Positions 1,034-64,000 of a DNA stretch of 64,000 nt are shown here, piece by piece (the first letter of the stretch is position 1; every line of letters starts with the position of its first letter). This stretch comes from Reclinomonas americana ATCC 50394 (Eukaryota). A model generated the notes under the pieces. The model had not been told where the DNA came from. It saw only the letters and a list, made by a program, of their open reading frames with translations, and made no database searches. The stretch lies in contig PS015309.1 in the NCBI GenBank assembly GCA_048213135.1, positions 42,434 through 106,433 on the forward strand, read 5' to 3'. Both the position numbers and the translations under genes were made by a program.

Positions 1034-3972
1034 ATGGCCGCCGCCTTCGCGCCCACGCCCGTCTGCGCATGGTGTGCTTACAGCTGACGGCGAATGCACC
1101 GTTGCAAGCGAGCGGTGTCAACGGCCGTGACGACAGCGAGCCGGCTGCCGACGACGACGACGATCGTCTCTTGCAAGAACTTGCATGCCACTGGCGCGCT
1201 CGTCACTAGTGCGTCTGCCTGTGTCCACAAAGCAACAGACTCCCTCTGTCTCTCTAACTGCAAGCACAGTGCGGGCGTGATGGATCTGGTCAGCGAGGCC
1301 CGCTGGCATGCGTGGGGTGCATCCGCGCGCCCGGCTCACCACTTGGCGCTGGCGTTCTTTGTGCTGGTACGCGCACGCTTGTGTGTATGTGTGCCTGCAG
1401 GCAGTTAACTTGCGAGACTCGCGCGCCCGCAGAGTGTGCTACGACTCCGCGGGATCGGCGCCGCACTGCAAATGGTGAACGCCTGTGGTCGCACGGATGC
1501 AGAGGACGACGTGACGCCGCCACACATGGTGCTGGAGGAGTCGATGCGGTTGCGGCTGCTGATATGCATCTGCGCGGCCAGTGGTCACGTCGTGCAATGC
1601 GGTCGTCTCCTCGAGCCACTGCTGCTGAGGGATGATGGCGCCGGCGATCCGCTGCTGTACTGGGCGGCGGCCAAGATGCACGCCACCATGGGCTGTGTGA
1701 ATGAGGCAGCGCGCTTTGCGGAGCTGTGCATCCGCCAGTGCCGAGAACGGTCGTACGCGTACGCAACGCCGGTGACGGTACCGCTCTTGTGCGATGCGGC
1801 CAGTGTGTTCGAGGTGGCTCCGGAGGGTGACTTGTCGTGGCAGTGCGTCGAAGCAGTGGATGTGATCACCACGCATGAGCGTGTGCACGCCGTCGCCAGC
1901 ATGCGCCGTCCACCACCTCTGTTTCGACCCGCGGAGGCTGACGTGCGCGTTGCCGACGATGGCATGCTGATGCAGCTGGTCATCGACGCGCTGATCTTGC
2001 TGGTGCGTGTGGTCCATCGCCTCGATGACAATGACACAGTCGACGACGTCGATGGGGATCTCGTGACTGTCGCTCTGCGGCAGCTTCACGTGTGGCAGCA
2101 GCAGTTAAGTAATCGTAGCGCTGTGTCTCGCGAGCCTTTTTGAGTCTGTGCTTACGTCTGTATCGTGACTGCAGGTGCAGCGGAGATGCAGAACTGGCGG
2201 CGACGGCGTCTCAGGCGGCACGACGCACCGCATTCAAGTTGCAGCTCTTCGGAACACGACAAGCGTTGCCGGCAATGAGTGTCGGTGGCCACGGTCGCGT
2301 ATCGTCGTCGCGTCGGCTGGCCATATTTGCTCGAAAACTACGGCAACGACTCGTGCGTGACAGCTTTTCGACCGCAGCCGGCGTTGCAAGGTGGTGCGCT
2401 CATGTCTTTCTATATTCAATGGCAGCAAACACGCAGCGAGACCACGGTGACGGAGTGGCGGGAGTGGATGCGGAGTGAGGACGTGCTTCCGTCGCCGGCA
2501 AGCTCCTCCTTGTCGCGACAGCCGCACTGGCTGTTTTCCGTGTGCCGACGAATGGGCGCAGCCACTTCACTGGTTGCGTCCGTCGTCGTTCCGGCGCTGC
2601 TAGTGGCACAGCAGTGGGATGACGCCGCGGATCTGTGCAAGCGCGTGCTCAGTGTGTCGCCAACGGACGCAGAGGTATGCATCCCACGTGGCACCGATCA
2701 TGACCTTTGCATTCTGACACATCGGGGCAGGCCTTGCTTTGCCTGCTCGTCGCATGCACACAGCCGACGGCAGCAGCTGCGAAAACGATCAGTCGATTGG
2801 ACAAGCTGGTCACGTTGAGGTGTGTGCGTGCAGCGTCACAACCTCGGATATCCCCCCTGCTCAGTGTTCGTGAGTGTTGTGGGAGAACAGTGAGCAGCTA
2901 TACGAATTGGCGCCCCACCTCTTTCGCGGATGGGAGCGTCGGTGGGCGCTGTGCAGAGGCCATCTGGCTGTGGGCGCCACTGTGCAGTTCTTGCGTCATG
3001 CTGTACCTCTCCGGCGGCAGTACTCGTCTGCAGAAGATGGCCGTCTGCGCATCAGAGACATACAACGGGAGCCGCAGACATTCGCAATGCGACTGGCGGA
3101 CAAGGTACGCACTCCTTTTCCCTTCTTCTTGTACGTACGTACGTATGCGCGCGACAAAATGACCATGGTCATCAACGCAGGCGACAACTGCGGAAGTGTC
3201 AGTCGAGCTTCATCAGTGCATGTGCAGTGCGTTGCTGGGCACTGGTCTGATTACCGATGGCCTCGTGTCACTTCGCTGGGCTCTGCTGGCGGCCTGTGAC
3301 ACCCTTCCCGACCTCACTACCACTCTGCTCCGCCGTCTGTGCGACTTGCTGACCGGCGGCAGTGTGGCGTCGCTGGCGTTGACCGAGCGTGCATTGCATG
3401 CGCTGGCTGTGCAGTACACGGGAGAGGGCGTGCGTCGTGCCGACAGTTTCGTGCGTGCCTGTCGTGAAAGGATTCCCACTGCGATATATATGCATTCATC
3501 ACGATGTTCTCTGTGCAGACGACAAGCTGCAGTGTTGGCGGCAACTGGCCGACGTTGCGCATGACCTGCGTGATGACGCAATGGAGACGGCTGCGCTGGA
3601 AGAGTGGCAGCGAGTTGCGCCGGACCGTCGTCGCGTCCATTTCATCCACAATACGTTCGCGCTGACCCAAGCTCTGTGCCGCAGCTGTCGCTCTCACCGT
3701 CACCTGCGATACACGAACGACTCTCGCGCTTGTATGCCACGCTCGGCAACTTTTCCGAGGCTCGTCGCCACGCTGCGCAGGCTGGTGTCGGACCTGCACG
3801 ACTGCTGGCCCTGGCACTGTGGGAGGCGCGTGCATCAATGCAACCCCCTCGCACCAACATCGCGTCCGCGATCCCCCACTCGTCGGCCATGACTGCCCTC
3901 CTCGAATCCGCGGAGTGGCCGACCGCGAGTACCGATACCGAAGTGCTACTCGCCGCCGGAGTCTTACAATAA
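1034..3972 (+). CDS. Hypothetical multi-exon helical (possibly TPR-like) protein
   Basis: Coding-biased ORF segments (1436-2103, 2175-2390, 2480-2674, 3181-3430, up to TAA at 3972) separated by short GT-AG introns. Helical motif LLVAQQWDDAADLCKRVLSVSPTDAE. Exact start and some junctions are uncertain. Confidence 0.5.
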
Positions 3973-4066
3973 ACCAAAGAAAATTGTTTACTCTCTTCTT
4001 GCCTCTCAGTTTATGGCCGAGATGTCGGAAGCTGTGCTCGACCGCCGTTCGTCGGTAACCTTGCGC

Positions 4067-7000
4067 TTATTCATTCTCTCTAATATTCGTGGATTGATCG
4101 GAACCTGCGCGCAAGGCAAACACAGTGTCGGCAAGTCGACCACACAGGCACAAACACAGGCCGTAGGCGTGCGACTCTCACCATGCCGAACGTGTTTGAC
4201 TGCGGTCTTGATCGCGCACTTGGCGATCTTGCGTGTATAATGGTCACCTCATCACCATCGTCGTCTGCGGGTACCGCGCAAAGTGAACAACCGAGGAGAC
4301 CAAGGAGAACGCGAGAATGGGGGACACGCACCGTCGCCCACATGTCGCAGTGCCATGTCACTCTCAAAGCCCATTCGAGCACCGTTTGCTCGCAACAACT
4401 GCACAAGTCAAGAAGCGTGAGAAGAGAGCGGGTACGACACCCGCAGAGAAATCGATGCATGACGCACATCAGCGACCTCGCTGTGATCCTGCCTGACGGC
4501 GTCGCTCAGCGGCGTGTGACCCCATCGATCGCGCGGATTCGGGTCGGCGTACTTGAGCAAGTAGCGAACCACTACCATGTGCAAACCAAAAGCTTGAGCC
4601 TCACACACGCACAAACACACACAAGCACACAAATTACCTTCCAACTCTCCAGTGCTGCGGTGGCCCGAGTGGTAAAGAATGAGAGAGACACACAGACACA
4701 CAACGTAAGCAGCAATCGAGAACGCGCCAAGTGCGTGCAGAGTGCCTCACCTGGCGGCCACATGCAGAGCTGTTCGACCATCCTCGTCGGGCATGTTCCT
4801 ACACCACACACGAGGTGAGCGCTTGTGCGCACAACAGATACACCATCCCACGAAAACAACGAACACATCGGCACCGCTGTTGACCAGTTGCTCCAATTCC
4901 TCCAGATCACCTGTGCATGCGATTGCATGAGCTTGACACAGCGCAGCGAATGTGAATCACAAATTCAGCAGCACACCTGTCGACGCCAACTGACACAACA
5001 AATCGACCATGCGTTGTGTCGCCTGGTTCAGAATGCGGACAATGTTGTCGTGATGCCGTCGTCTTGCATCATCCACGGCCATGCCTCCCCACCGATCCTT
5101 GACGTTGGGCGGCACACCAGCTGCATGCATGCATGTGAACAAGAGGCAGAAAGAGTAGTGCACTACAAGCAACAAGTGCACTTGCCTTCAAGGAGGAATT
5201 CGACTACCTCGACGTGTCCCTGCGCAGGTGTGTGGTACAGTGTCAACAAACCCAAACAAACGAAAAAAACGACACACGTGCAGGAACGAAACGTTGGCAG
5301 CTGCCAGATGCAACGCCGTACTGCACATATCGAAAACAACAATCGAGTGGTCAGACACAAATGCACAATCAATAGGTCACGTGAGTGCGCAAGTTTGTGT
5401 GCCACACCGTCCGTCACAATCCGGAACTGCAAGGCACCCACAGTGGTAGCAGTGAGTGGTGAGCAAGCAACGGGGAGGCACTTCTCAAAAAAAAGTGGAC
5501 GCACTGAAGAGAGCGCAAGTGCGCGACAGTGCCTGCAGCGTGTCCAGATCGCCGGAAGCACCGGCCTCGCACAGTTGTTCACCCTGCACCACGGTGTCAG
5601 TGGTAGGTTCAGTGTTTCACCGAGCAAGCCACAGGTGCGCACCAGATTCTGTGTTTCTGTCGACGCGCCCTTGCTGATCATCCACTCGGCCACATCGTGA
5701 TGTCCGGCACGCGTGGCAAGTGCCAGCGGTGTCATGCCTGCTCGGTCGACCACATTAATGTTCGAAGTTGGCAGACTGACCAGGTACTCGAGGACATTCT
5801 GGTGTCCATTCGCTGCCGCCAAGTGGTACGCCTGGCGGTCGAGTTGTGGAATGAGACCAACACCCGTCCATATCGTCACCAACTGAGGGNNNNNNNNNNN
5901 NNNNNNNNNNNNNNNNNNNNNNNNNNNNNNNNNNNNNNNNNNNNNNNNNNNNNNNNNNNNNNNNNNNNNNNNNNNNNNNNNNNNNNNNNNNNNNNNNNNN
6001 NNNNNNNNNNNNNNNNNNNNNNNNNNNNNNNNNNNNNNNNNNNNNNNNNNNNNNNNNNNNNNNNNNNNNNNNNNNNNNNNNNNNNNNNNNNNNNNNNNNN
6101 NNNNNNNNNNNNNNNNNNNNNNNNNNNNNNNNNNNNNNNNNNNNNNNNNNNNNNNNNNNNNNNNNNNNNNNNNNNNNNNNNNNNNNNNNNNNNNNNNNNN
6201 NNNNNNNNNNNNNNNNNNNNNNNNNNNNNNNNNNNNNNNNNNNNNNNNNNNNNNNNNNNNNNNNNNNNNNNNNNNNNNNNNNNNNNNNNNNNNNNNNNNN
6301 NNNNNNNNNNNNNNNNNNNNNNNNNNNNNNNNNNNNNNNNNNNNNNNNNNNNNNNNNNNNNNNNNNNNNNNNNNNNNNNNNNNNNNNNNNNNNNNNNNNN
6401 NNNNNNNNNNNNNNNNNNNNNNNNNNNNNNNNNNNNNNNNNNNNNNNNNNNNNNNNNNNNNNNNNNNNNNNNNNNNNNNNNNNNNNNNNNNNNNNNNNNN
6501 NNNNNNNNNNNNNNNNNNNNNNNNNNNNNNNNNNNNNNNNNNNNNNNNNNNNNNNNNNNNNNNNNNNNNNNNNNNNNNNNNNNNNNNNNNNNNNNNNNNN
6601 NNNNNNNNNNNNNNNNNNNNNNNNNNNNNNNNNNNNNNNNNNNNNNNNNNNNNNNNNNNNNNNNNNNNNNNNNNNNNNNNNNNNNNNNNNNNNNNNNNNN
6701 NNNNNNNNNNNNNNNNNNNNNNNNNNNNNNNNNNNNNNNNNNNNNNNNNNNNNNNNNNNNNNNNNNNNGCATAAACACAAACACAACACGCACAAGTATG
6801 CGACAACGTACCGATCACGCAAAAAGTACACCGAAAAATACGACGCCACGCCCACGACGGCACCGATGCCCATTGCTGCGCCTGTGAGAGTGCGATATGT
6901 TGTTGCACATGAGAACCGGGTTGCACATTGACAGCAAGATCAAGAAAAGGCGCACCCGCAGACACGTAGCCACAGCCGGGTGTGATGCCTGCAAGACCGG

Positions 7001-9712: not shown

Positions 9713-16650
<6,938 letters not shown>

Positions 16651-16764: not shown

Positions 16765-19321
16765 TCATTCACGATGAGCCTTGGCAGACCCGACACGCGC
16801 ACCGGTGCCAGCGGCATGTGCAGGCGTGGTCATGCTCACCACAGAGAGTGTGTGCGGAGAGCCGGCGTCCATCTCCACCAAGGCCATGGGCGCGTGCAAT
16901 CCGTCTCCCCCTCCGTCTTGCAGCAGTGGTGCAGTGGCCAAGTCGCTGTCCAGAGCAGCGTGGCGATCGTACAGCCAAGCAACGTACTTTTGGTGGGCCG
17001 TCAGAGTTTCAAAATCGGCCGGCACCTCCCAGAAGGCGTCGTCGCGGTAGTACATGTCCAACGGGTATCCGCGAGTGATGAGACGCACCACGTAGCCACT
17101 CAGTGCACCAGTCGACGCGCCAAGACCAAGAGTGATGGCCAGAGCGGCCACTTGGTACGGCGCCTGATTGTCGGTGTGCGGGAACATGGCGTCGAAGCTG
17201 TTGCCGTAGTCCGCACGCTTGGCGACAGCGGTGGCAATGATCGCCGTGATGCCACCGAGGAATCCAGGCAGACCGTGCAAGCCAAGCACACCGCAGGTAT
17301 CTTGCAGGCCGATCTTGCGCTCCAAGAATGGAAGAATGTAGCGGAAGGTGAATGTCGACAGGATGCCGGCACAGAAGCCGAGCAACAGAGCACCCTGGGT
17401 GGGAGGAGGAGAGCGGGCGTTGTTAGCACAACGTACTTGGTTGTGTGCACATGTACATGACGGCGGGGCGCAACTCCAGTGCCGAGAATGAGATCGGCCG
17501 ATGCGCCCACCGCCACGCCACCGGCAAGAGTGGCATTCTGCACGTGCACCATCTCGAACTTGCCGTGGAAGAGCTTGCTCGAGGCGAACGTGCTGACAAT
17601 GCTGGCGGACAGCGACAGCACAGTGTTGATGATGGCACGGAATTGGTTTTCACCAGCAGTGGCGGCATTGAATGACGGCCAGTAGATCCACAGGAAGATG
17701 GTGCCCACCATGGCGAAGCTGTACATGTGTGTGTGTGCACACGTGCAACAATTACACACAAAGCAGCACAGCAGCAGCGCCACACGCGAGCAAGTGCACA
17801 CTCACATATCACCCTGGTAGGAGGAGGCACGGTCGGCAGAGGCCAGTGCTCGTTTGTGCGAGAGGAACCAGGTGGCTGCGAGGCCGAAGCTGGCGCCGAA
17901 CAAGTGAATCGTCATGCTGTTGTTGGGCGGAAGCGATCGCCATGGTGAGCAGACACACTTCGTCACTGCTCCTCCCCTCCTCCTTAAACGCACCTTCCAC
18001 CCACATCCACCGCGCCGACCTTGTTGATGCACACGTAAATGTTGAGGGCGTAGAAGAACATCTCGAAGATGCCGAGGTAGAATATCTGAGTGGGCGTCGT
18101 GCGGCCGATCAGCACGCCAAAGGTGATGAGGAAGGTGATGGCGGCAAAGTTGCCCTCGATGAGCCACGACGAGTTGATGCGCAGCGTGTCCCACTCGCCC
18201 GCCGCAATGCGCACAAAGAGAGCACGCATGAGGATGCCCCACTGGATGCACACGCCGGCCAGGAGCATGGTGAGGCCGACCGACCCGAATCCAAAGCGAC
18301 GCAGGAAGGTCATGAGGAAGCCAAAGCCTGTGCGCTCACACACACATGAGGTCAGGCGCCGCCCGATGACGAGTTTACGAACGCAGCGCGCAGCGGACAA
18401 GGGAAACAACAAGAACCGATGAATGTCATGATAGTGATTCCTGCACACACACACACACGGATGCAGATGAGTTCGCACACAGCACATTGTCAAGAGGAGC
18501 ATCGCACGCTCACAACTCACCAAGATAGTAGGAATAGAACGATGTCACGCGATTGGCAGGGCCGACTTGGAGAGCCGTGTCGGTGCCGTCAGAGTAGTCG
18601 ACGAGGGTGAAGTACAGCAGAATCATCAGCAGCTGGAACAGGAAGAGTGGAACACTGAGCTCCTGGTGCGCGTTGTCGCCCGCGTGGCCACTGGCACCGC
18701 CGCCGTCAACACGGCCGATGTTATCGACATCGCGCAGCAGCTCGAGAATCTGCGAATCCCGTCATCATCATCATCAATCACACACAGAGAAGGCAAGGAG
18801 TGGAGAGTGGAGAGCGGAGAGCAAAGAGAGAGAGTGTGTGTGAAGAGTGCCAGATGCGCATATGCGCGCGCAGCGTTTGCGTGCACGCACCCTCTTCCTC
18901 CGCTCGCGCACGCTGCGCAGCGACTCTTCGAGTGAGCGGCGATTCGATGTGTTCTCCATCAGCGCCGCTGTTGCGAGTGTTGTGTGTGTGTGTCAGTCGA
19001 TACCAGCACGCATGTATATGGCAAGAGAGTGCGCATCAGCAGTGCGAAAACACACACGAAACTTCCCAGCGCCTCGAGCGTCTCCAACTCCTCAGTCGCA
19101 ATGTTGGAGAGCTGCGTCTCCAGATCATCCTTCAACCTGCGAATGCGCGCACGCACACACACACACACACACAGAGGCACGCACACGAGATGAGCACACA
19201 CACTCACACACACACATGCATCATTCATCGGCGGCGTGGCGGCATTGAAAACTCTAAACTCTTACAAAACACCGGCACCTCGGTGCCGGGAGACTCACCG
19301 CGTGGTTGCTGCGTAGGCCAT
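16765..19321 (-). CDS. Rhesus-family (Rh50-like) ammonia channel
   Basis: Spliced: [86 protein letters not shown]. Both pore histidines are present. ATG at 19321 followed by CG|gtgagt. Confidence 0.93.
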
Positions 19322-45163: not shown

Positions 45164-46610
45164 CTGCGGAAGGGGCGGGAGACGCACCTTGATGCCAGGC
45201 TCGCCTCGTGTCGCCATCCATCATGATCCACCGACTGGGCTGGTCGTGACTCATGCCATCACTGACGGCCTCGTACTCACTGCGGGCGGGCATTTGCGCG
45301 TGCTGCCGTGCTTGTGTGGCAGCAGCGGCGGCCGCAAATCGCTCGCTGGCCTGCGACGCCACTGTTGTCACCTGTTGCGAGAGTCGTCGATTCTCTTCGC
45401 GCAGTTGCATCACCAGCTGCTCACGTTCCTTGGCCTGCAACAGGGTGAGCGTGTGTGCTGCTCGTATTTTGCACACAGAAATACAGCCGCACCTCGCCCG
45501 CCATCTCGGCCAAGTCGGAGCGCAGCTGATGATTGTGTCGTGCGATGCGGTCCAACTCCTCGCGCAGCACATGAACCTCCTTGGCCTGGTGCGAGCTCAC
45601 GTCGGCATGATCATACGCCTGCTTTGTTACCACTCGCAACGCCCTCGCTTTCTTCTCCGCCTGCGTTCCACAAGAGGGTTCACGGAACTGAGCGCGTCGG
45701 CAACTCGAACAATACATACACACACACGCACACACGCACCGTGGCCTCCACCACCCGCGCACTCTCCTCGGCCCTGCGTCGAAGCTTGTCGTTGCGCATC
45801 GCCAACTCTCGAGTCTGCCGATATCTGTCCTTGGTCTCCTGCACCGTCGTCTCCAGTGTGCTCACGCGCTGCTTCAGCTCCGTCACCTGCTTCTCCAGCT
45901 CGCACTTCTCGGCACTGCATTACCACGCAGCACAAGTCACACACTCGGGCGACGGAGAGGAGCGAATACAGCGAGAGTGGAGCCTACGTACCTGATCGTG
46001 GCGAGCTTGGCCTGCTTCCGTTCGACCTTTTTCTCCGCATTCGCCGCCTTCTTTTGTACCTGCTGTTCGCGGCCACTCATCTCCGCCGCTTGCTTCTGCA
46101 CCTCGGCAAAGCGCTTCCGCAGTTCACCGTACGCCTGATCGGCCTCCCACAGCCGCTGAGCGTCCTCTTGACTCTTGTGGTTTGCGTTGTCAGTTTGGAC
46201 GCGCCACCACGCTACACGAGAGCAGTGCGCCACTCACCTGTGCCGTCAGTCGCTCCACTTCGGCTTGCAACTGGTGCTGCTCGGCCACCGAGGCCGCCAG
46301 TCGACCGTGACCCTCTTGAATGCGCACACTCATCGCCTGATCACACGTGAGAGTGAGAGTGGGGCAAACACACCAACAGAGCACAAGCGGGAAAGTCACG
46401 CACATTGGCCTGCACTGTCAGCTCCTCATGCTGCCGCTGCAACGAGCGATACTCGCGGGCCAGCACTGCTCATGCGATCAGACAAAGAGGGAAAGAGTGA
46501 GACAGAAAAGAAGGCGCGCACTCACCCGACAGCTGCTCCGCCTTCTCCTCGTTCTCCTTTTGCGACACATCCAGCCGCTGTTGCAGCGACAAGTACATCG
46601 GAATGGCCAT
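45164..46610 (-). CDS. Coiled-coil protein of unknown function (3' end in gap)
   Basis: E/K/Q/R-rich heptad exons (LQQRLDVSQKENEEKAEQL, LKQRVSTLETTVQETKDRY, EREQLVMQLREENRRL) joined by GT-AG introns. Confidence 0.6.
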
Positions 46611-46701: not shown

Positions 46702-49700
46702 ATGAGCTCGAAACCGCGTCGCGTCTCCACCGGAGGTGCTTCCATGTCCAGTGCGCGTTCTGCCACGTCCTCTTCCACAACTACCACCACCACCACAACC
46801 ACCACAAGACGTCGTCCACAACAAGCCTCCTCCTCTGCGGCTGCTGCTGGTGCCTCTTCTCCTGCTCCTCCACCACCTCCTCCTCGTTCACAAGCCGAGT
46901 CTGCGTCACACATTGCGGCCTCGCTCATTGTGCGTCTTCCTCTCCTGCGTGTGTGAGAGCAGAGATTGAGCATCTATCTGACTGTTGCCACACAACAGTG
47001 TGACAAGGCTCAGGAGCGCTCACTGGAGAAGATCTACGATCTGGATCTGCGCGACTGCAAGCTGACCACGAGTCGAGGGCTGGAGAAGGTCTCCTTTCGC
47101 TGACTTGTCTCATCACTGGGGGGAGTTTCGACTCATATCAGCATCATCTGTGCAGTGTGTTCGTCTGAAGAAGCTCGACTTGTCGCACAATGAGCTGGAG
47201 GTGCTGGAGGGACTGCAGGAGTGCACTGATCTGCGCGAGTTGCGCGCCACTCGCAATCTACTGCGTGCCTTGTCGGGCTTGGAAAAGTGCGCTGCTGTTG
47301 TCGTCGTCGTCGTCTGTCGGCTTGTCGGTGGTGATGAGCACTCACACCGTGCACTCACAGATGCACCCGACTGACGGCACTGTATGTGGCGGATAATCGC
47401 ATCGCGGCGTTGGATGACAGCCTGCGTGCGTGCGAGACGCTGACGACGCTGTCGATGCCAAACAACGTGTTGACGGCGTTGGATCAGCGATGGTTTGAGA
47501 CGTTTAGGCCGGTGTTGCAGACGCTGGATATCTCGGGGAACGCGTTCGGCACTGGTGACACGGGTGGAGTGCTCAGATTACCGCGCAGTGGCTTCCCCGA
47601 GTTGCGGACGTTGCATGCCAACAACAATTCTGTCGGTGAAGTGCGTGGCTTGTCGGTGTTGCCGGCGTTGGAGGAGTTGCTGCTGCGGTACAACCGTCTG
47701 GTCTCCTTTGCCGGCGTCTCCAATCTCGACAAGTGTGAGCGGCTGACTCGTCTGGATCTCACCGGCAACCAGCTGGTGGGCATGGAGTTCTTCCCGCCGT
47801 CAATGCCGGCTCTGACCGAGCTGCTGTTGGCGCGCAACAAGCTGGCCGGCAGTGTGCGTGAGGCGCTGCGTGTCATTGCTGCGGCTTGTCCGAGAGTGGA
47901 GGTGTTGGAGTTGGATCGCAATCTGCTCGAGAGCGACGGTCTTGCGCCCTCGACCTACCTGCTGGAGCTGCAGCCGTTGGCGTCGCTCGCCGAGTTCTCG
48001 CTGTTTGAGAATCCGTGCATGGAGGTCGTCGACCCGGTGCAGTTTCGTGTGGGTGCGATGGAGAGCAGAGAGTTGTAAGGGTGTGCCGACATGCTGTGTT
48101 TGTCACAGGTTTGTGGAGACGGCCATGCTGTTGCTGCCGACGGTCGACACAATCGACAAGCTGCCCGTCCGTCCAATTGGTGATCAACCGGCCGCGGCGC
48201 CCAACCAGGACTACGGCCTGCAGCTCACCAGCCTCGATGAGTTGGAGCGGGAGCTGGAGTCGCTGATGCGTACAGATGGCGAGGGTTCATCGTCGACACC
48301 ACGCGCACAAGGCACCTCCCGGCGACCGCCAGTTGGGCGACCGGGCTCCGCCTCGGGTGGCCGTCCGGGCTCGGCGGGTGGTCTTCGCAGACCACAGACA
48401 CCGGGAACCAGTGTGCCGACCACAGCTTCAGGTGTGTGTGTGTTTGTGTATGTGAATGGAGTTTGAGTGGTGTGGGAGTGTGCTCATTTGATGGGTGTTG
48501 TAGGTCGACCAATTCTACGCGCAGTCAACTCGCGCCCAGTCAACGTGTACCGAACAGTGTCCACCGATGCTGTCATGTCGGCGGTGAAGGAGCTGCGGCG
48601 GGAGATGGATTCGATCACCAATCGCTACCTCGAAGTGTTTGAGTCGCTGGAGAAGAAGGCCACAAGTGCGTTTGACATTCTCGTACTCCTTTCATTCGAT
48701 CGTCATCCTCATTCTTTTGCGTGTGTGCAGTTATTAATGACAAGGCCATGGATTCGGTGCGCTCGCTGTCGTCTGCCGACGGTTCGCCGTCGTCCAAGGC
48801 CAGCGTGCGACCGCCCTCTGCTGCCTCGTCGGAAGTGGCTGCGCTTGCCGATCCCGGTTCAACAACGTTCCTCACGACACTNNNNNNNNNNNNNNNNNNN
48901 NNNNNNNNNNNNNNNNNNNNNNNNNNNNNNNNNNNNNNNNNNNNNNNNNNNNNNNNNNNNNNNNNNNNNNNNNNNNNNNNNNNNNNNNNNNNNNNNNNNN
49001 NNNNNNNNNNNNNNNNNNNNNNNNNNNNNNNNNNNNNNNNNNNNNNNNNNNNNNNNNNNNNNNNNNNNNNNNNNNNNNNNNNNNNNNNNNNNNNNNNNNN
49101 NNNNNNNNNNNNNNNNNNNNNNNNNNNNNNNNNNNNNNNNNNNNNNNNNNNNNNNNNNNNNNNNNNNNNNNNNNNNNNNNNNNNNNNNNNNNNNNNNNNN
49201 NNNNNNNNNNNNNNNNNNNNNNNNNNCACCGGCAGCGAAGAGGAAGAGGAGCGACCGCGTACGGCCAGCGCACGTCCACGCTCGCGGCTGGAGGAGGCTC
49301 GTTCCGCCTCCCGTGTGCTGTACGGCAAGCAGAGTGGCGCCGCCGAGGCAGCGCTGTCGGTGCGACCGGGTACGGCTGGCGGTTCCGGCTCGCGTCCTGG
49401 GTCGTCGGCCTCGGCCAGTCGACCGTCCACTGCCGACAGCGCCGGCGGCGCTGCGGTGAGTTTCGGTGACCTGTTTGCCAAGCCCGCGGTCGCAGCAGGA
49501 GGAGCGGGAACACGTGCACGGCGGACACCGTCGCCACCGTCACTGGCAGTGCGCAAGTCGGCGGCAGCGGCGGCGGCGGCTTCTGGCAGTGGCCGGTTAC
49601 CGTCGTCGTCGTTTGCCGAAGACGCGCATTCGGACTCGTCGTCTCTGTCGTCGCTGGATGAGGAGCAGGAGGCGGCGTTGCAGGCGCGCATGGGCGACTG

Positions 49701-51321: not shown

Positions 51322-51328
51322 TCGACGA

Positions 51329-52763: not shown

Positions 52764-53637
52764 TCACACCCCCAATGACAGGCGCGTGAACTGCGAAAAG
52801 TCGACACGCGTAGCATCACGCAGCGTCGCCACCAGCTCCTGCAGCTCTTCCGCATTGCACAAGAACTGCACACCGCCCTCCGACGTCTCCAGCTCAATCG
52901 TGTACAACTGCAGTCCGCAGTGAGCGCGCCTCCACACACCTGCACGCCAAGCAAGCACACGCAAGCACGCAACTGGTCGCGCATCAATCGCCTGCGTCGA
53001 GTCACGCGTGTAGTGATCCAGTCGCCACCGCACACCACGCAGTTGCGGCAGTCCCGTCGTTCCCACCGCCGACAGCCGCTCACGAATCTGTGCCAGATGT
53101 GCATCAAAGGCCGACACCACCGCCGCCTGTCGCTCACCCGTCACACCCGCCTCCTCCAACGCCGATCTTTTTGTGTGTCTCCAAAAGATGAGCAACACGA
53201 ATTGATCCGAGCGCATCATCCACCAGACTCACCCCAGATCGAGTGAATGCACACTGCGCTTTGCCGCCTGTGTGTACAACGCCAGCAGTCCCGCATGCGC
53301 TGCCTTGACCAGCACTCTCTGCTCATCGCTCACACCTCCGCCTGTGCGTGAACATGTCAACACTCACACACACGCGCGCGCTCTCTCTCTCTCTATGCAC
53401 GCAACCCAACACATCCTCCAGCAGCTCGCCACGCGCAGCGGCCGACGAGGCCAATGCACGCGCCGAGGCCTCGGCCACTTGCCGCACATGCGCCGCACTG
53501 AGCGAGCTCAGTGTGACCAGCGCAGCACGCTGTGACTCACTGACCAGCGGGCCTCCTCCCGCCACTGATGCACCAGCTCCACCTACTGCTGCAGCAGCTG
53601 ACGATGATGATGAACCAGCGCCGGCTGCTGAGGCCAT
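52764..53637 (-). CDS. COMMD3: COMM domain-containing protein 3
   Basis: LPQLRGVRWRLDHY...VQFLCNAEELQELVATLRDA (COMM domain); N-terminal VKAAHAGLLALYTQAAK; 3 introns. Confidence 0.8.
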
Positions 53638-53682
53638 TATATGTGCAAAGATAAGATNNNNNNNNNNNNNNNNNNNNAGTAC

Positions 53683-53683
<1 letters not shown>

Positions 53684-53734
<51 letters not shown>
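53684..53734. repeat. (TC)n microsatellite in an ISCA2 intron next to a gap
   Basis: Directly visible. Confidence 0.95.
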
Positions 53735-53740
<6 letters not shown>

Positions 53741-53743
53741 TAC

Positions 53744-55384: not shown

Positions 55385-58300
55385 ATGAGCGGAGCGACGC
55401 GAGTTCGTCAACAACCACAACCTCATGTGCGCTCTCAATCGGCCTCATCGCCCACTTCCTCGGCGCGTCGCTCAGTGACCACAGTGTCGGCCTCACAACG
55501 CAACGCACGACCGACAGTTGCGTTTCTCACATGTCGCTTTCCAACCCCCGAATGCTCATCATCGCCAATTGCATCTTCTCCGCGCGCAGAGTGTGACGCG
55601 CGCGCATCCTCCACTCTCCCCCAAGTCCTCCACCCGAGTGGCACCGATCGCACCCGACGTCACTGTCACTCCCGGGCAGAAGAGACGGCCATCGTCGTCG
55701 TCCACCATCGAGGCCTCGTCGCCCTCGTCGCCGGCTTCTGCATCTGCGTCGATGGTGGCCGCAGTGGCGGCCGCGGCCACGCTGCGTCGATCGTCTCTGC
55801 AGTTGCCACTGGGAGCGCTGGAGAGTGCAGGACTCGGTAGCCAGTCGCCACGTTCGCCCTCGGCTCCGCCGTCGGCACGATCGCAGTGCGCCACCTTCCG
55901 CTACCACTCGCCCGATCACCGCGGAGGCGCGGCTGTGACGGCCCCCGTGCAGCCACCCATGTCGTCGCGATACGGGTCACCGTCGCACTCGCCGCGAGCC
56001 TCGCTGAGTGGAACGCTGTCGTCGAGCACCATGGCCGTCGCCCGCCGTCTCGGTGTCAATGTCGACGAGGCGCAGTTCATGGAGGTTTGTGGCAATGATC
56101 CCGACTCACGTAGTGCTGCACGCGAAGGAGAGGAAGACAGAGAGAGAGAGAGAGAGCTGTGCCACTGACCATGTTGTGCGTTGATAATGATCGTGATCGT
56201 CGGAGAATCCACCGAGGCTGGGCCACCGGCGTTGTGCTTTTGTTATCCTTCTCTCTCTGCATGCCATGCTCATCATGTTTGTTTGTGTTGGCGATAGGAT
56301 GTGCGCAAGACGGTGGTGCGGTTGAAGAGCTTGCCGAACAGCACGACCTACGTGGAGGATTCGGTGCAGTTTTTGGTCGAAGCCGCCAAGGAGAGCGACC
56401 ATCACCGAGTGATTATGCGTGAGCTGGGCACCTTGGAGGTGCTCGTCTCTCTGCTTCGTCACCACGGTACCAATGTCCAGTCGCTGGCCGCCGAGGCGCT
56501 GATGCTGCTTGGTGCGTGTGTGTTGTCCTCAGTTTCGCACATGCATGATTTGTCCGATCCTGAACCGATGCAATGTCGTCTTGTGTTGCAGCGAACAACA
56601 AGGGCAACCGCGACCGCATTCGCGAGGTCAATGGCATTCAGCCGCTCATTAATTTGCTGAGCAAGGAGTATGCGGTGTTGCCGGCCGCCATGGCGCTGCG
56701 CAATTTGTCTACTTCGTCGGAGAATCAGGTAAAGAAATGCCACTGCAGCACGTCTGATCCTTGTCGACTGTTGCTCATCAACCTGCGCCACAGCTCCGCA
56801 TCTACCAGTACGACGGCGTGGAGCCGCTCATTCGGCTGCTGCGACATGTGGATCCGCGCGTGCAGGAGCAAGCGGCTGCGGCCGTGGCCAACTGTGGTTC
56901 GCATTCTTGTCCCCAAGCGTGTGTGTTTGTGTGTGTGCTGCAGTCGACTCAAATCGATCGCCTTGTCGCACACAGCGGCCAACTCGACAAACCAGGGTCT
57001 CATTCGTGACCTCGGCGGCGTTCCACTGCTGGTGAACCTGCTGGCAATCAAGAACTCGCGCATTCAGCGACAAGCGGCCATGGCACTGAAGCACCTGGCC
57101 GGCAACGAGGTCAACCGCGACCTTGTGCGCGACGCCGGCGCTGTGCCGCTGCTGATCGCCATTCTGCACGAGGGCAAGACACGAGCCAAGGCCATGGCGG
57201 CTGGTGCGCTCGGATTCTTGGCCTACGGCGAGCAGGTTTGTGTTTCTGTGTGTCGTGTTCATGCCTGATCATCATCACTCGTGCTGAATCATACAATCGG
57301 CGGGCGCAGACTCGCGAGCTCATCCGCATCCACGGTGGCGTGGCACCGCTGTGTACCATGCTGCAGTCGAGCAACGTCGATTGCCTTGAGCAGGCCACCA
57401 CCTGCATTGTCAACGTTTGTGAGTACTCATTCATTCCCTTGTGTGCTGATCACTCGCTGGTGCTGTTGCTAACTGCTGCCGCCAATCGCCGAACAGCTCT
57501 GAACAAGACCAACCGCCACCTGATTCGCGAGTGCAAGGGCATCGAGAGCCTCATTCGCCTGTTGATGAGCTCGAACGCCACGGTGCAGGAGAATGCTGCG
57601 TGGGCGCTGAAGAACCTCGGTATGTGAATTCCCCTGTCAGTACGATGGCAAGCTCCTCCAGCATGACACTCATGCTTTGTCCCCCCTCGCAACAGCCATG
57701 ACACGCGCCAACCAGGACCACATTCGCGAGAATGGCGGCTTGGAGGTGATGTTGGACCTGCTGGAGACGGAGAATCACGAGCTGCTCTCACATCTGGTGT
57801 GGGGTCTCACCAATCTCAGTTGCGTCTCTATCTTTATTCTGTACCCATGGCCCTGTGACACGCCCGTGTATCTAGTTCTGACCGCTCGCTCGTGTATGCA
57901 GCCATCAACAAGTACAACCAAGACGAGATTCCGCGTCTTGACGGCATCCGCCCGCTGTTGCAGCTGCTGTCGCACGAGCGTGATGATGTGGTGGAGAAGG
58001 CCGCGTGGACGCTGACCAACCTGTCGGTCAGTGTGGAGAACCGCGACAAGATTCGTCTGGAGGGTGGCATTCCGCCCTTGATCACACTGCTGGCGCACCC
58101 GAACGCCAAGGTCAGTGCAGTGTTTGCGGGGACAAGGAGAGTCTCTCTGTGTTCTCCTCGCTGACTCTCTTTTGCAGTGCGTGGAGAAGGCGGTGGCCGC
58201 ACTCAGCAATCTGGCCACACGGAAGCCATGCCGCGAAGCCATTCGTAAGAACGGCGGCATTCCACCGCTGGTCGAACTGCTCGACTCGAACATTCCGGAG

Positions 58301-59635
58301 CTGCTGTGCGGGGCTGCCGGCACACTGGCCAATATGGGTGAGTGGCACGAGTCACGACTGTTGCATTGCACGAGGACACGCATCTCATCTCTGTGTCATC
58401 GTGTCTGTGTGCGCAGCGAGCAAGCACGATGTGAATCGCGAGGCAATCCGCGCCGAGGGAGCTGTCGGTCGCCTGTTGCAGTTGCTCGGTCACGTGGATA
58501 GCATGGTCCGCACCGAGGCGTTTGCCGCGCTGCGCAACCTGTCTCGTTGCGTTCACTCTGTCTGTCGTGTGCCAATGTGTTTACTCGGGGAAGCTCACCG
58601 ACCCGTGCCATGCGTGCAGTGGGTGAGGCCTTCAATCGCGCGCTGCAAAAGTTCGTCATGATCCCCGTCGGCCCCGACACGTTTGCCGAGTTGGGTCAGG
58701 CGGTGGCCGAGTATGAGCACGCCGCTGAGGATCTCGACGCGGCGGCGTTGTTGGAGATGCTGGTGGCACGGCATGGTGGTGAGTGTGATGATGATACACG
58801 CTGTCAGTGCCTGTTTGGCTTGTCTCACGATTGATTTGCAGGCACACCCGATCCACAATTGCTGGCCGAGTACCACCGCGTGGCGCAAATGCCAGCGCCG
58901 TCGACTGCTCAGCACTCTCGCTCTTTCTCCGACATCACCGGCACCACACTGTCGGTGCGCCCGGTGCCTCGTGACGACAGCCGACGTGCGTACCAGCTGC
59001 AGTACGCGCAGCAGCACCACGATTCGGTGTCGGTGCAGTCGGACAGTCCACCACGAGCGACCGTGACCAGCATTGATTTCCCCGAATCGTCGTCCACACC
59101 ACCACCACCTCCACCGCCACCACAGTCGGAATCAGCACGCATTGTGCAACCGCACCAGGGTGGCAGCCCACGCAGTGGGTCTGCTGGGCGACCACAGCCG
59201 GCGTCCTTCAATCTCCCGCAAGTGCCTGGCTCACGATGTGCGTGCCTCTCTCTCTCTCTCTCCCCCGATTGTCACATTCAACTGACGTTTGTTCAATGCA
59301 CAGCGTCACCGCCGCGCATCCCCAGCGCACCTGGCTCCACCTCGTCGCTCGGCATGAGTGACGACACGGGCGCTCACGACTTCGATCACGACAGCTCAGG
59401 CGACGATCTGGTGCGCTCGATCGCCCCACCACGGCAGTCAGCGTTCTCCACCCATACCACCACCACCACCACCACGACAACCACGGCTGCGGCGCCGCCC
59501 ATTGTGCCTCCACTGGTCGGCTGGGGAGCTTCATCGNNNNNNNNNNNNNNNNNNNNACACCCACCCACCATCATCACCACCGTCAACCCCTCTCAGCACG
59601 ACCACGCCAACGCAGGTCGTGCAATTTTGATATGA
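55385..59635 (+). CDS. Armadillo-repeat protein (Vac8/PUB-like ARM array) with disordered termini
   Basis: At least 10 ARM repeats (GIQPLINLL, GGVPLLVNLL, GAVPLLIAIL, GGIPPLITLL, GGIPPLVELL; AAWALKNL, AAWTLTNLS). First exon 55385-55516 is inferred. Final reading frame is uncertain because of the gap at 59537-59556. Confidence 0.85.
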
Positions 59636-59835
59636 CGGTGGTCGTGTGGTGCTTGCTGGAAGTTGTACTACCTCTTTGTGTTGCTGCCTCTTTTTTGCCT
59701 CCTCCTCCTCCATAACCTCCCACCCTCAAACAAAAGAATTGCCAGAAAGAACCTCCTGTCGCCCACCATTGTTAGAGCGTCGTCAGTGTACCACGATACT
59801 TCTTGTCCTTGACATCATAATCATCACAAGGAAAA

Positions 59836-62179
59836 ATGCTTCTCTTGCGCACATTGCGTCGCTCACTGGCACGTTCGTGTCATTGCTTTCGTCACTCCCA
59901 TCGCTTTTGTCTCACTCGTGCCACACAGTCGACGAGCAGCAATGTGATGCGCGACACGCCCGATGCCTTCCTGCAGAACGTGATGAAGCACAACGGATTG
60001 CATCGCGCCATGCTTGCATTTGATCACGAAACGCGTCGTGTGGTTCCCTCACATCCCGCGCTGCAAGTCGTCGCCGACTGGATGATGAATGACCCGGTGG
60101 ACTACAAGCAGGTGGGCTCAGCAACACATGCATGCATGCGTGAGTGTGTGTGCGAGAGAGAGAGATGCGCTGATTCTCTCTCTCTCTCCTCTGTCGCAGC
60201 ACGAGGCCATCTTCCTGGAAATCGGGCGAGAATCCGGTGCTCTTCTCGGCTCCTTCTTGTGGTGGACGAAGCGTGGTCAGGGTTGTGGTGGCATTCGCTA
60301 TCGCTCCTACACCAGGTTGGTGCTGTCTCCTGTCTCGTCCCTTCCTCTTTGTCTCTGTGGCTCACGAAGAATTGCAGCCTGGAGGAGTACCTGCGCGACG
60401 GCATGCGACTGGCCACTGGAATGGGCCAGAAGAGCGCCCTCGCCGGTCTGTGGTGGGGCGGTGGCAAAGGTATGTAGTCGAAGGTGGGGAGGGAGGGAGA
60501 GAGAACTTGTCCACGCTCGAGCTCATATCATGTGCCTGCTTGCAGGCGTCATTCCCATGCTGTCGTCGCACTCGGACAAGTTCCTCGACCGTGGATTCCG
60601 TGATGCGTTGTTCCGAGACTAGTTGAGTGGTGACAGCATTTCTCTGTGTTGCTTGACGTGCGCCGTGCCTCACTCTCGCTGCAGCGGTCGTTTCCTGACG
60701 GGCACACAGGGTGCCTACGTGGCTGCTGAGGATGCTGGTGTGCTCATCCCCACAGCTGCCTGCCGTGCGTGTCTCATGACTCACTTATGTGCTCGTGTGC
60801 ACAGGCGTCAACGTGGAAGACGTCGATGTGGTGTTCTCACAGACTCGTCACACGACGTGCATCTCACCGCGCCTGGGTGGCTCCGGCAACCCGTCAGTAC
60901 CCACAGCTCAGGTGACTCCCTGTGCGAGACAGGCGGTTTTTTTGCGATGCCTACTCAATTCGCCAACCGCCTGCGTACACGCAGGGCATTGTGTGTGCGA
61001 TGGAGGGTGCGCTGCAGTTCCTGAAGATGGGCAGTCTCGAAGGCAAGACTATCGCGGTTCAGGTCTGTGTCATGCTCGGCGTCACTATTTTGTACCACGA
61101 GTTGTTGTTGACGCGGTTCCACACACAGGGTGTCGGCAATGTGGGTCTGCCGCTGGTGGAGTTCCTGCTGGCCAAGGGTGTGAAGCGCATCGAGGCTGCC
61201 GAGACTGTGCCGCACCGACTGGAACAGGTGTGTCTGCAGCCGTGCTGGCGTCTCGCTCTCTCCGTCGTGCATCGTCTCTGACCGTGCACTCGCCACTGGC
61301 AGGCTGTGGAGAAAATCACCGACTCCCGCGTGCGATTCCGTCATGGTTGTTACTCCTCGCACTTTTTCTCCTGCATGCGCCATCGTGTGTTCTCATCAAC
61401 ACACAAACTATGCTGGGCAGTGACCACCAGCGACATGAGTATCTTGCACGAGGAGGTGGACATTGTGTCGCCGTGTGCCTTTGGTGGCGTCCTCAACCCC
61501 ACCACCATTCCTGGCATTCGGTTTGTGCGCTCTTGTGGCTCTCTACCTCAAACACGCGAGAACTTGACTTGCTGTGTACTGTAGGGCGAAGATTGTGTGC
61601 GGTGCGGCAAACAACCAGCTGCAGGATCCGCGGGGAGATGGAGAACTGGCGAAGCGCGGCATTGTGTACGTACCCGATTTCGTCGGCAACCGCATGGGCA
61701 TGTTGCGTGTGTGCAGCAGCGTGACCAGTTTCCTCTGTTTGTTTGTTCGTTGATCCTCACGTCACGCTTGTTGTACAGCGTGAACTGTGCCAATGAGCAG
61801 TACGGCTACGTGACACCGTCGTCGGAGGATCCGTCGTTTGCCCGTCACTTTGGTCGCGACTGGGAGGACTCGATCCAGAACACCACTCAGCGCGTTCTCG
61901 AGTTTCGTATGTGCCACACCCACTGTGCCGAGGCGCACACTCACTTCGCACTCTGTGATACAGGCTTGCCAAGCGCACTGGAACATCGCCGGCTGTCGCG
62001 GCCATTGTTGCGTCACTTTACTCACCCACTCACATACAGCTGCTTGGACTCATTGTTGCAATAACCAGTCGCTGGCCGACAAGGCCGCCAGCGTGCCGCA
62101 TCCGATTTGGGGCCACCGTGTGCGCCACATTATCGAGTCGCTGCGGAAGAACTCGTGGGCCAGCGCCGAGCGTTTGTGA
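59836..62179 (+). CDS. Glu/Leu/Phe/Val dehydrogenase family protein, probably mitochondrial
   Basis: GCGGIRY, MGQKSALAGLWWGGGKG, YVAAEDAG, GGSGNPSVPTAQG, IAVQGVGNVG, SPCAFGGVLN, VCGAANNQL, YVPDFVGNRMGIVN; Arg/Ser-rich N-terminus; ~13 introns. Confidence 0.9.
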
Positions 62180-62495
62180 CAAGTTACCCCATTTTTGTGG
62201 GAGAAATGACAACTCCGTGACGTGAGATTTGATTCCCCTGTCCGAGTGAAAGTAAGTGGAAGATTGGCGGACTGCTGGCGCGTGGAGAGAGCGAGAGCGA
62301 GAGAGATAGATAGTAGTGCCGCCACGTAGATCACCACTGCCGTCGCTCGAGTGCTTGGGGACCTAGTTCGCCGTGTCAGCGTGGTTTGCTCTCGTCACTA
62401 GTATCTGGGAGGACAGTGGGAGTGCTAGTAGAGGCCACAACGGTAGAGAATCAACAGCTGGTGCGACTGCGGCAGTAGAGGGAGAGCTGTCAATC

Positions 62496-64000
62496 ATGGG
62501 GCACTCGGAATCCAAGTCGGCGCGTGGTGAGGCTATCGTGTTTGGCGAGGTTTGTGCTGTGGGTGTACTGTGTTCTCGGTGGCCGGAACACGTCTCACCA
62601 GTCGTGCACAGGAGGGTGCCGGAAAGAACGAGCTGCTTCACATCGCAACGGTGCGTCTTTTGCTTGTCGTGTGAGGGGCCGGCGATCAACTTTTTCACCA
62701 ACATGGAATCGTTTTGTTTTTCTCCAGCGGCTTTACACCAACACTCCACTCAAAGTCGAAGCCGAGCGACATGGGCGTCTGCTCTTCAGTGAAGTGAGTT
62801 GTCGTCTCAGTTGCCGCGCCCCTTTCTCCCCTGCCGAGCTGACAAGGGCACACGTGTGGCAGGAACTCGTGGTGAAGCACGGAAGCGAAACCACCAAGAT
62901 TCTCTGGGTCTGCATCTCATGTTGTTGTTGTTGTTATCATTGATCTCCCTGCCCGTTACTCACGCATGCACGCACTGTACTCTCAGTGGAATACGGGCGA
63001 TTGGACGCACTTCTTCTCTGGCATGTCTGCCACGCAGAAGAAAACGTTCTTCTCGTCGGATCGGCGCTGTTATGTGATCGTGTACAGGTGAGTAATAATT
63101 ATTCCGAATGCATTTTGTGATCCCCAGTTATGACTGACCAGTGGATGGGGTGAACCAGCGTGACAAGTCGCCGTACATTCAATGCGGTGCATCAGGTATG
63201 CGGTTTGAATGCGAGGCGCGGGAGGGTCATTCATTCACTGACAATTCGGCGATGGCTGTTTTGCAGGTCATTCAGTGCCTCCGCCATTTCCAGAGTGGCC
63301 GCGGTGCTGCGCCGGTGCTGGTGGTTGGCACTGGAGTAGAGTGCGAAGTGGTTGGGCGAGAACGAGAAGTATCGAAAGAGGAAGCCATTGTTGAGTGGTC
63401 TGCTTTCGTGCTCGCAGCCTCACACGCTGACACTTACAGCATCGTTCGTCGCGCAGATGTTTGCACAGCAACACCACGCGCTATACATGGAATGTTCCGT
63501 GGTCACTGAGTGGCACGCGGAGCTTGTTATCCAAGTGGCAAGTTCCATCGGCATTCAGTGCAAGTTTCGTTGGCTTTGATTTGAGGGAGACCGTGCTGTG
63601 TGTGTGACACTAACCGAATGTCACAGCGGTCGACACGGACCCCTTGATGCGAAATCGGTGATTGCTGAGGCGCTGCGGGAAAACATTCCTGCCGATTCCG
63701 TGGTGCCCGTTGAGGTGCCTGCAGCGGGCTCTGCACAGCAAGCGCCGGTCGAAGCCCTCGTCGGTGGTGCGCACCCACACATGCAATTGATTATAGCTTC
63801 TTCGCTCACACGCATCACGTTTGCAGTGCCGGCCGTGCACGACCAGGGCTCCGTGTCTGACTCCGAGAATGTGTACATGGGGTCGAACTACACGCCGTGC
63901 CGAGCGGCATACGCGTTCATTGTCGACAACGAACGAGAGGAGATACCGGAGGGCTTTGTGGCCATCGAAGAGCTGCGCGCGCTCTATGTGTATCGCTCAA
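62496..64000 (+). CDS. Degenerate Ras-superfamily GTPase-fold protein with N-myristoylation motif; continues beyond the window end
   Basis: Spliced MGHSESKS...IVFGEEGAGKN...ILWWNTGDW...YVIVYSVTSRRTFNAV...PVLVVGTGVE...REVSKEEAIMFAQQHHALYMECSV. Confidence 0.7.

Follow-up and report, generated by a model that had tools for sequence, protein, structure and literature searches.

The introns of Reclinomonas americana ATCC 50394 described here, predicted in a stretch of 64,000 nucleotides (assembly GCA_048213135.1, contig PS015309.1, positions 42,434 to 106,433; hereafter the window, numbered from its first letter), begin for the most part with one of two related donor sites: an unshifted form, GTG(C/T/A)G(T/C), or a form that we call shifted, GTT(G/T)CGT, in which the consensus is displaced by one base. 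The shifted class makes up about 26% of the predicted introns (49/185), and the exons that precede it rarely end in G. The reading that we favour, and hold to be reasonably probable, is that of one donor signal in two registers, the shifted class being read in a +1 register by the U1 small nuclear RNA (snRNA), and then by U6, with the cut kept at the GT.

Introns were called with a dynamic-programming gene finder of our own, in which the donor model is a three-component mixture that takes as input only intron positions +3 to +8, and in which the acceptor, branch and length models are re-estimated at each iteration. As the donor model is blind to exon bases, tests on the last base of the exon (-1) are free of exon-base bias. 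Codon log-odds were trained on Pfam-supported stretches, with the true frame scoring best in 12/12 leave-one-out tests; this training was used in place of codon self-training from long open frames, which drifted and lost real genes, and seed lists built by open-frame logic alone proved too noisy. The finder converged on 34 genes with 185 introns, all of them predictions, and homologue-based junction checks cover two genes, encoding a P-type cation ATPase and an alpha-N-acetylglucosaminidase (NAGLU).

The 185 introns comprised 124 with unshifted donors, 49 with shifted donors and 12 others. Base -1 was G at 85 of the unshifted donors (T at 22, C at 9, A at 8) and at 8 of the 12 others, versus 3 of the shifted ones (A at 19, C at 14, T at 13), a strong association between donor class and -1 G (Fisher test; p-value = 9e-15). 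This is the association that the original prediction had proposed, and its accompanying observations also held for the predicted introns of the window: most unshifted donors do read G/GT (the slash marks the exon-intron boundary), and the non-G unshifted examples that it cited are all present (AAA/GTAAGC at 14141, ACT/GTGCGT at 14622 and, on the minus strand, CCC/GTGCGT at 7554). Its count of shifted donors was about 47, with an exonic G before three. The total is close to ours and three again follow G, two of them the same: the NAGLU intron at 38790-38857 (minus strand, gtg/GTTGAGTA) and an intron at 53342-53405 (minus strand, tgg/GTTGCGTG), the latter a gene-finder call only. The third differs, being in our set the intron at 23449-23523 (minus strand, cag/GTTTCGCA), likewise a gene-finder call only and not among the three named before. 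The case named in its place, at 20592 on the plus strand, does exist in the sequence as a plausible intron of 69 nt (20592-20660, aag/GTTACGTG, with the donor GTTACGT) whose flanks score as coding, but the gene finder read through it.

Shifted donors made up 3/96 of the introns in the two classes taken together with the others after G, 19/28 after A, 14/26 after C and 13/35 after T, and at non-G exon ends the shifted form is the majority form (46/89, versus 39 unshifted). The contrast between the classes is strong because -1 G is enriched at unshifted donors; within predicted exons G precedes GTT in 15% of cases, and 3/49 is only marginally lower than this background (one-sided p-value 0.04 to 0.15). 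When the same genes were called with a flat donor model, in which every GT is equal, 268 introns were obtained, 119 of them unshifted (G at -1 in 75) and 37 shifted (G in 3); this run over-calls, with 112 introns in neither class that are mostly noise, and GTTGCGT was dominant again. In the hand-curated ATPase gene, with 28 introns, -1 G was found at 0/7 shifted donors versus 15/21 of all other donors (Fisher test; p-value = 0.0014). The exact heptamer GTTGCGT occurs 39 times on both strands of the window against 16.2 expected, a number reached in 0/100 shuffles, and GTGCGT occurs 111 times against 87.9 expected.

Shifted introns are present in most multi-intron genes and on both strands. Their clustering along genes was not significant (p-values 0.12 and 0.23), nor was an overall test of heterogeneity among genes in shifted donors; two predicted minus-strand genes lack them, an ankyrin-like gene at 4067-5888 with 10 introns and a 6-intron gene at 45165-46610. 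No significant difference between shifted and unshifted introns was detected in the first base of the downstream exon (p-value = 0.11), and lengths, acceptor scores and branch scores were alike in both. Shifted donors vary much less in their motif than unshifted ones, 29/49 being exactly GTTGCGT, and ATT precedes 6/49. Uniformity and a recurrent flank are what a mobile intron family (introners) carrying GTTGCGT and inserting at non-G sites could leave behind. On the other hand, such a family would be hard to reconcile with the similar lengths and acceptor scores and the absence of clustering, and an all-versus-all comparison of the 185 introns gave 218 matches, of which the 40 listed were all GT/CA microsatellite, with no common body sequence; we regard this origin as highly improbable. 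U12-type introns, whose motifs are /RTATCCTT at the donor and TCCTTRAY at the branch, were considered and rejected, as donors of the form GTT(G/T)CGT and CTSAY branch-like motifs, the latter as in the other introns, do not fit.

The six shifted donors preceded by ATT are those at 11790, 11936, 12084, 13199, 62007 and 63390 (plus strand), four of them in the ATPase gene, and their predicted pairing with U1 in the exon is almost nil. TT at -2 and -1 is mildly enriched among shifted donors in general (7/49 against a background of 6%; p-value = 0.03).

Junctions of the shifted introns

The position of the cut was examined against homologous proteins. For the ATPase, the spliced product, assembled from the pieces given by the gene finder and four introns that it had missed, was aligned with 25 full-length homologues from a representative search; for NAGLU, 20 homologues were used, including a transcript-derived protein of a relative with 65% identity. 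The ATPase junctions were gap-free throughout the conserved body, including those of the shifted introns at 12084-12152 (att/GTTGCGTG), 12259-12328 (aac/GTTGCGTG), 13199-13274 (att/GTTGCGTC) and 16223-16290 (ttc/GTTGCGTT), all on the plus strand. The NAGLU junctions, on the minus strand, were gap-free at 39833-39906 (act/GTTGCGGA), at 39458-39531 (caa/GTTGCGTG) and at the intron after exonic G whose donor is at 38857, and at 40741-40804 (act/GTTGCGTC) as far as the alignment reaches. At 39531 the junction lies within a motif that is identical in the transcript-derived protein of the relative.

A shifted donor also offers an in-frame alternative, GTT/GCGT, in which the intron would start three bases later at a GC, and both readings were scored against the homologues. 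The GT reading scored higher in 19/25 homologues at 12084, 18/25 at 12259, 20/25 at 13199 and 18/25 at 16223, and, in NAGLU, in 20/20 at 39531, 20/20 at 39906 and 18/20 at 38857; at 40804 it was higher in 10, lower in 3 and equal in 7 of 20. The remaining three shifted introns of the ATPase gene, called by the gene finder on the plus strand, are in unconserved sequence, where homology is uninformative at 10590-10655 (ttc/GTTGCGTT, in the N-terminal extension) and 11790-11857 (att/GTTGCGTG), and weakly informative at 11936-12000 (att/GTTGCGTT). In all, the GT reading was higher at 8/11 shifted junctions and never clearly worse, the other 3 being uninformative, in support of the earlier claim that cleavage stays at the GT. 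Judged from these alignments, the GTTGCGT introns are cut at the GT, with an ordinary AG acceptor, as expected of U2-type sites in a shifted (+1) register.

The same evidence bears on the idea that the class is an artefact of intron calling, GTTGCGT being no donor at all or the real start lying at the GC. All introns here are predicted, open reading frames alone leave the in-frame GC reading standing, and the ATPase gene does contain a GC-AG intron at 12578; however, the preference for GT at 8/11 junctions, the enrichment of the motif (39 against about 16) and the fact that a flat donor model still picks these sites make such an artefact scarcely credible. Orthologous introns were sought among metagenome relatives of the ATPase, which have at most 59% identity; the 8 examined of 80 loci were intron-poor and lacked the motif class.

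The alignments also expose the errors of the gene finder, which overlooked weak or GC donors. The four ATPase introns that it missed were the GC-AG intron at 12578, those with GTAAGC at 14141 and GTACAA at 14529, and that with GTGCGT at 14622. Its donor at 15027 was wrong, as seen from a four-residue insertion, the correct one being G/GTGAGT at 15015, and a second error was found at 40352 in NAGLU, so that the non-G unshifted calls at 15027 and 40352 are really G/GT donors a few codons upstream. The unshifted donors without -1 G at 14141-14201 (aaa/GTAAGC) and 14622-14692 (act/GTGCGT), both on the plus strand, have gap-free junctions against the homologues, and four non-G unshifted donors in the ATPase gene were confirmed by homology.

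The GC-AG intron lies at 12578-12641 (plus strand, aag/GCAAGA...TTGTAG), and its removal extends the sequence ...NRALK without gaps against the homologues. At 14529-14582 (plus strand) the donor, gag/GTACAAAC, has no G at +5 or +6, and its junction is gap-free, indicating that donors well outside both classes are in use. In many introns a (GT)n microsatellite stands at the start or a (CA)n one at the end, for example at 7532 (-), 19213 (-), 27001 (+) and 51011 (-). In these, several in-phase GT donors compete, which makes the choice of the gene finder unreliable and inflates T at -1 among unshifted donors.

Register of the donor signal and its reader

In the shifted donors T at +3 and G at +6 were invariant (49/49 each) and T was found at +7 in 84%, that is, the consensus is displaced by one base; the position right after this last T slot was G in 41% of the shifted and 48% of the unshifted donors. 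Aligned on the conserved G, the two classes give one profile, C-A-G, then G or U, then U-G-C-G-U-G. The match extends into the exon once the one-base shift is allowed for: base -1 of shifted donors (A 19, C 14, G 3, T 13) did not differ from base -2 of unshifted donors with -1 G (A 35, C 15, G 13, T 22; p-value = 0.27), nor did -2 from -3 (p-value = 0.34) or -3 from -4 (p-value = 0.31), whereas without the shift the -2 bases of both classes did differ (p-value = 0.02). In both classes the dinucleotide most often found just before the conserved G was CA, at 10/49 shifted donors (background 7.8%; p-value = 0.004) and 20/85 unshifted G/GT donors (background 3.2%; p-value = 3e-12). By this profile match and CA enrichment the exon bases of shifted donors would fall in shifted slots, -1 opposite U10 and -2 opposite G11 of U1, and the agreement of the exon profiles (p-values 0.27 to 0.34) fits the original proposal that the first G of the intron takes the slot of the missing -1 G.

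A separate avoidance of -1 G was considered and rejected, since G occurs at 13/85 of the equivalent slots of unshifted donors versus 3/49 (p-value = 0.17); an earlier p-value of 0.005, obtained against all unshifted donors, was inflated by microsatellite donors. On the reading favoured here, the register itself would account for how seldom G precedes a shifted donor, with neither a separate rule nor a gain in pairing strength. Shifted donors lack -1 G enrichment despite having C instead of G at +5. A canonical-register reading without +5 G would demand -1 G, so its missing enrichment speaks for the shift.

The model that we propose would need a single donor signal, roughly CAG/GUGCGUG, on short GT-AG introns, occurring in two registers. 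In the common form the cut would fall between the two G's. In the shifted form, about a quarter of the introns, U rather than G would follow the conserved G (CA/GUUGCGUG), so that the conserved G and this U make the only GU and the cut would fall one base further 5'. U1 snRNA, through its 5' end, is the most likely reader, U6 following later, and in either form its partners would be one and the same GCGU block and CAG block. Where the donor is shifted, the slot otherwise taken by the last G of the exon would hold the first G of the intron, and the last two bases of the exon would sit in the A- and C-preferring slots. That U1 and U6 are the readers, pairing in the +1 register, is something we infer.

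Register-specific duplex energies were predicted with the canonical U1 5' end, ACUUACCUG, as printed in PMC4856993, assuming its conservation in this organism. In the canonical register, unshifted donors had a mean of -7.4 kcal/mol with -1 G and of -1.9 kcal/mol without it. For the 46 non-G shifted donors the canonical register gave a predicted mean of 0.0 kcal/mol, the +1 register one of -1.0 and the bulge one of -0.6, so that canonical pairing is poor and +1 pairing better, the absolute value being weak. The predicted cost of the extra U is 2.4 kcal/mol at donors with -1 G and 1.0 at those without (p-value = 2e-11), and with canonical U1 H/GUUGCGU pairs no better than H/GUGCGU. These values run against the original description of the rule as compensatory, as the extra U weakens the predicted pairing in every context. 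They agree in part with its view that U1 slides by one base when -1 G is absent: register +1 is indeed better than register 0 at non-G shifted donors, although the pairing is very weak, and sliding is cheaper at a non-G end, but it is not obligatory, non-G unshifted donors being common. The classes may instead form a near-neutral network, in which both forms persist at non-G ends because they are nearly equal there (46 shifted, 39 unshifted) and the unshifted form dominates where -1 is G (85 to 3).

An extra nucleotide could also be accommodated by bulging, with the exon end and the GU paired normally, the GCGU block paired one base further on and the extra U, at +3 or else at +2, looped out. 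For human sites, excerpts of PMC4856993 describe such a +2/+3 bulge register, with 68 predicted and 54 left after curation, and it is the most stable predicted register for our three shifted donors with -1 G (-5.6 kcal/mol). A bulge, however, keeps -1 opposite C9 of U1, so that G enrichment as in unshifted donors, or a stronger one, would be expected there, and only 3/49 were found; the exon profile matches the shifted slots and not the unshifted ones; a looped-out base could be any base, whereas T was found in 49/49; and at the non-G shifted donors looping out is predicted to pair less well than shifting (-0.6 versus -1.0 kcal/mol). The constant T as extra base, the invariant G at +6 and the lack of -1 G enrichment favour a full one-base shift over a looped-out U, and we consider the bulge unlikely.

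Several points weigh against the one-signal, two-register reading. The U1 position 5 slot faces C in 45/49 shifted donors versus 52/124 unshifted ones (p-value = 6e-10), and since this C finds no partner in canonical U1, a changed U1 or another reader may be at work. With canonical U1 the +1 register is predicted to be very weak (mean -1.0 kcal/mol) for so common a class, weaker than the non-G unshifted donors (-1.9) and far weaker than the G/GU ones (-7.4). Introns outside the ATPase and NAGLU genes rest on our own gene finder, which errs, and all data come from one 64-kb window in which the introns are predicted and the U1 and U6 readers inferred.

The C opposite U1 position 5 could be accounted for by a second or altered reader, that is, a non-canonical U1 5' end or two U1 species, for which the shifted donors would be a fully paired second code and not a mismatched form of the first; candidate changes are G at U1 position 5, which pairs with C or U at intron +4, or A at position 8, which pairs with the U of the shifted slot. 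At intron +4 the unshifted donors have C in 42%, T in 37%, A in 19% and G in 2%, the opposite of the preference of canonical U1, with U or pseudouridine at position 5; this composition hints at a changed U1 5' end, being the pattern expected opposite G, and the equivalent slot of the shifted donors, with its C in 45/49, fits as well. A U1 with G at position 5 would equalise the predicted pairing of non-G donors (-4.6 kcal/mol for shifted donors in the +1 register, -4.7 for unshifted ones). Excerpts of bioRxiv 2022.06.08.495308 report U1 5' ends that match atypical donors in Entamoeba and in Mastigamoeba balamuthi (ACGUAC), the latter with G at position 5, and mention mixed standard and variant U1s for Physarum. 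On the other hand, according to the same excerpts, Thecamonas, Micromonas and Saccharomycotina have C or U at +4 yet standard U1, so donor composition alone predicts U1 poorly. The window itself contains no U1 gene, a Rfam search of its 64 kb giving 0 matches at the gathering score. An altered reader of either kind is in our judgement a distinct but minor possibility. Doubtful, too, is its stricter version with two parallel donor codes, in which U1 would read G/GUGCGU and a second U1, or one with a changed 5' end such as G at position 5, A at position 8 or both, would pair fully with /GUUGCGU, the latter reader setting the cut one base 5' of the usual point of the helix. If true, this version would turn the shifted register, an oddity in human, into a regular, genome-wide way of defining 5' splice sites that covers a quarter of all introns.

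Further shifted donors and the genes of the window

The window is eukaryotic and gene-dense, with a G+C content of about 58% and 8 runs of N. Its numerous introns are short (55 to 90 nt), have CTSAY branch-like motifs and end in YAG acceptors. Pfam searches on its open frames identified an ammonium transporter (minus strand, about 6.8-9.0 kb), a P-type IIC cation ATPase (plus strand, 9.7-16.7 kb), NAGLU (minus strand, 37.9-41.1 kb), deoxyhypusine synthase, a protein with HEAT and SNF2 domains, and LRR, HAUS4 and Armadillo-repeat proteins.

The ammonium-transporter gene, where Pfam Ammonium_transp matches an overlapping frame, carries six shifted introns between 7569 and 8774 on the minus strand, all gene-finder calls only, with donors at 8774, 8655, 8489, 8378, 7815 and 7642 preceded by c, c, t, t, c and c, respectively. 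A further seven, also gene-finder calls only, lie between 29012 and 34475 (plus strand) in the HEAT and SNF2 gene, with donors at 29012, 29591, 30082, 31716, 32129, 32614 and 34396 preceded by a, a, a, c, a, c and c. This gene (26688-34669, plus strand) is predicted as a single unit joining HEAT repeats to an SNF2 plus Helicase_C ATPase, a layout like that of Mot1/BTAF1. In Pfam searches on its single exons the profile coordinates were ordered across exons, imprecisely so at 32614; a homologue search with its 469-residue HEAT exon retrieved none.

The other shifted introns were called by the gene finder. On the plus strand they lie at 3446-3518 (aca/GTTTCGTG) and 3614-3684 (cga/GTTGCGCC); 21128-21198 (aga/GTTGCGTG) and 21379-21447 (caa/GTTGAGCA); 36494-36575 (cca/GTTGCGCA); 41769-41838 (aac/GTTGCGCA) and 42920-42981 (tgc/GTTTCGTG); 48042-48108 in the LRR gene (gca/GTTTCGTG); 55517-55589 (aca/), 57819-57901 (tca/) and 58546-58619 (ctc/) in an Armadillo-repeat gene; 60622-60684 (cta/GTTGAGTG), 61702-61778 (cat/), 61902-61963 (cga/GTTTCGTA) and 62007-62068 (att/); and 63390-63456 (att/GTTGAGTG) and 63564-63626 (caa/GTTTCGTT). 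Those on the minus strand lie at 164-237 (gct/GTTGCGTC); 17395-17474 (gga/GTTGCGCC) and 18968-19062 (gaa/GTTTCGTG); 22206-22271 (gcc/GTTGCGTG) and 24304-24375 (gtt/GTTGCGTT), in the same gene as the donor at 23523; and 52908-52973 (cca/GTTGCGTG). A candidate shifted donor, gca/GTTAAGTA, at 2104-2174 (plus strand) was not called.

In the ATPase model, about 560 residues rich in Ala, Pro and Ser are predicted as an N-terminal extension (9713-11790, plus strand), and the C-terminal membrane region contains an insertion of about 150 residues (15649-16222, plus strand); both are without counterpart in the 25 homologues. Its nearest named relatives are in zoosporic fungi, with about 50 to 57% identity; a homologue search with one ATPase open frame gave no match. 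For NAGLU (37879-41131, minus strand), the best named matches of an exon are bacterial, with 45 to 54% identity, the exception being the one transcript-derived eukaryotic protein, at 65%.

Comparison with known systems

The position of the spliceosomal cut relative to U1 binding is usually treated as fixed. Roca and Krainer reportedly described, in 2009, human 5' splice sites that pair with U1 snRNA in a shifted register; such sites number a few dozen in human, and outside a handful of human sites shifted pairing is not known to occur. Canonical donors show a trade-off within one register, in which G at -1 and G at +5 compensate for each other. The donors described here resemble that case in that the last exon base is associated with intron positions, but differ in that the G lost from +5 is always present at +6, and no enrichment of -1 G accompanies the C at +5. 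The original prediction set its rule apart from this trade-off, rightly, as it does differ; it is not without precedent, however, since shifted U1 pairing is described for human sites in excerpts of PMC4856993.

According to those excerpts, in the human shifted register G+1 pairs with C9 of U1 and U+2 faces C8, with the helix moved by one and the cut at the GU; the register is mentioned also in the part of PMC9311317 that we consulted. The likeness lies in the GU at the cut, the U at +3 and the G/U block at +6/+7 rather than +5/+6, and in an exon end that need not be G, as in the human test oligonucleotide ACA/GUCAAGUAUA (PMC4856993, excerpts). In human the shifted register is rare, the validated non-canonical registers together making up about 1.5% of 201,541 sites in the same excerpts, whereas here it would account for 49/185 predicted introns. 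It also has a tight consensus of its own here, GUUGCGU and not GUUAAGU, and is the majority form at non-G exon ends.

The bulged +2/+3 registers (Roca et al. 2012, Tan et al. 2016; PMC4856993, excerpts) are alike in having one extra nucleotide between the GU and the G paired with C4 of U1, but a bulge predicts a -1 G preference, whereas the exon profile here is shifted. The U1 5' ends of Entamoeba and Mastigamoeba (bioRxiv 2022.06.08.495308, excerpts) offer another parallel, in that intron +4 is C and canonical U1 matches the donor consensus poorly; there, however, the consensus changes within the normal register, and the excerpted text describes no second, shifted class. Among the matches listed in literature searches, with supplements outside their scope, GTTGCGT or GUUGCGU as a donor gave only primers, aptamers and unrelated sites, and shifted registers gave the human work and one speculative mention in tunicates.

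A genome with about one intron in four shifted, and with the shifted form in the majority at non-G exon ends, would be a natural test system of hundreds to thousands of sites. It might reveal how the scissile bond is fixed by U1, U6 and Prp8, whether donor sites and the 5' ends of snRNAs evolve together, and how intron positions escape the AG/G proto-splice-site constraint. In practical terms, gene finders trained on one donor matrix only will get a quarter of the introns wrong in genomes of this kind. One-base-shifted U1 pairing is itself known, as a rarity, in human; here it would serve about 26% of the predicted introns.

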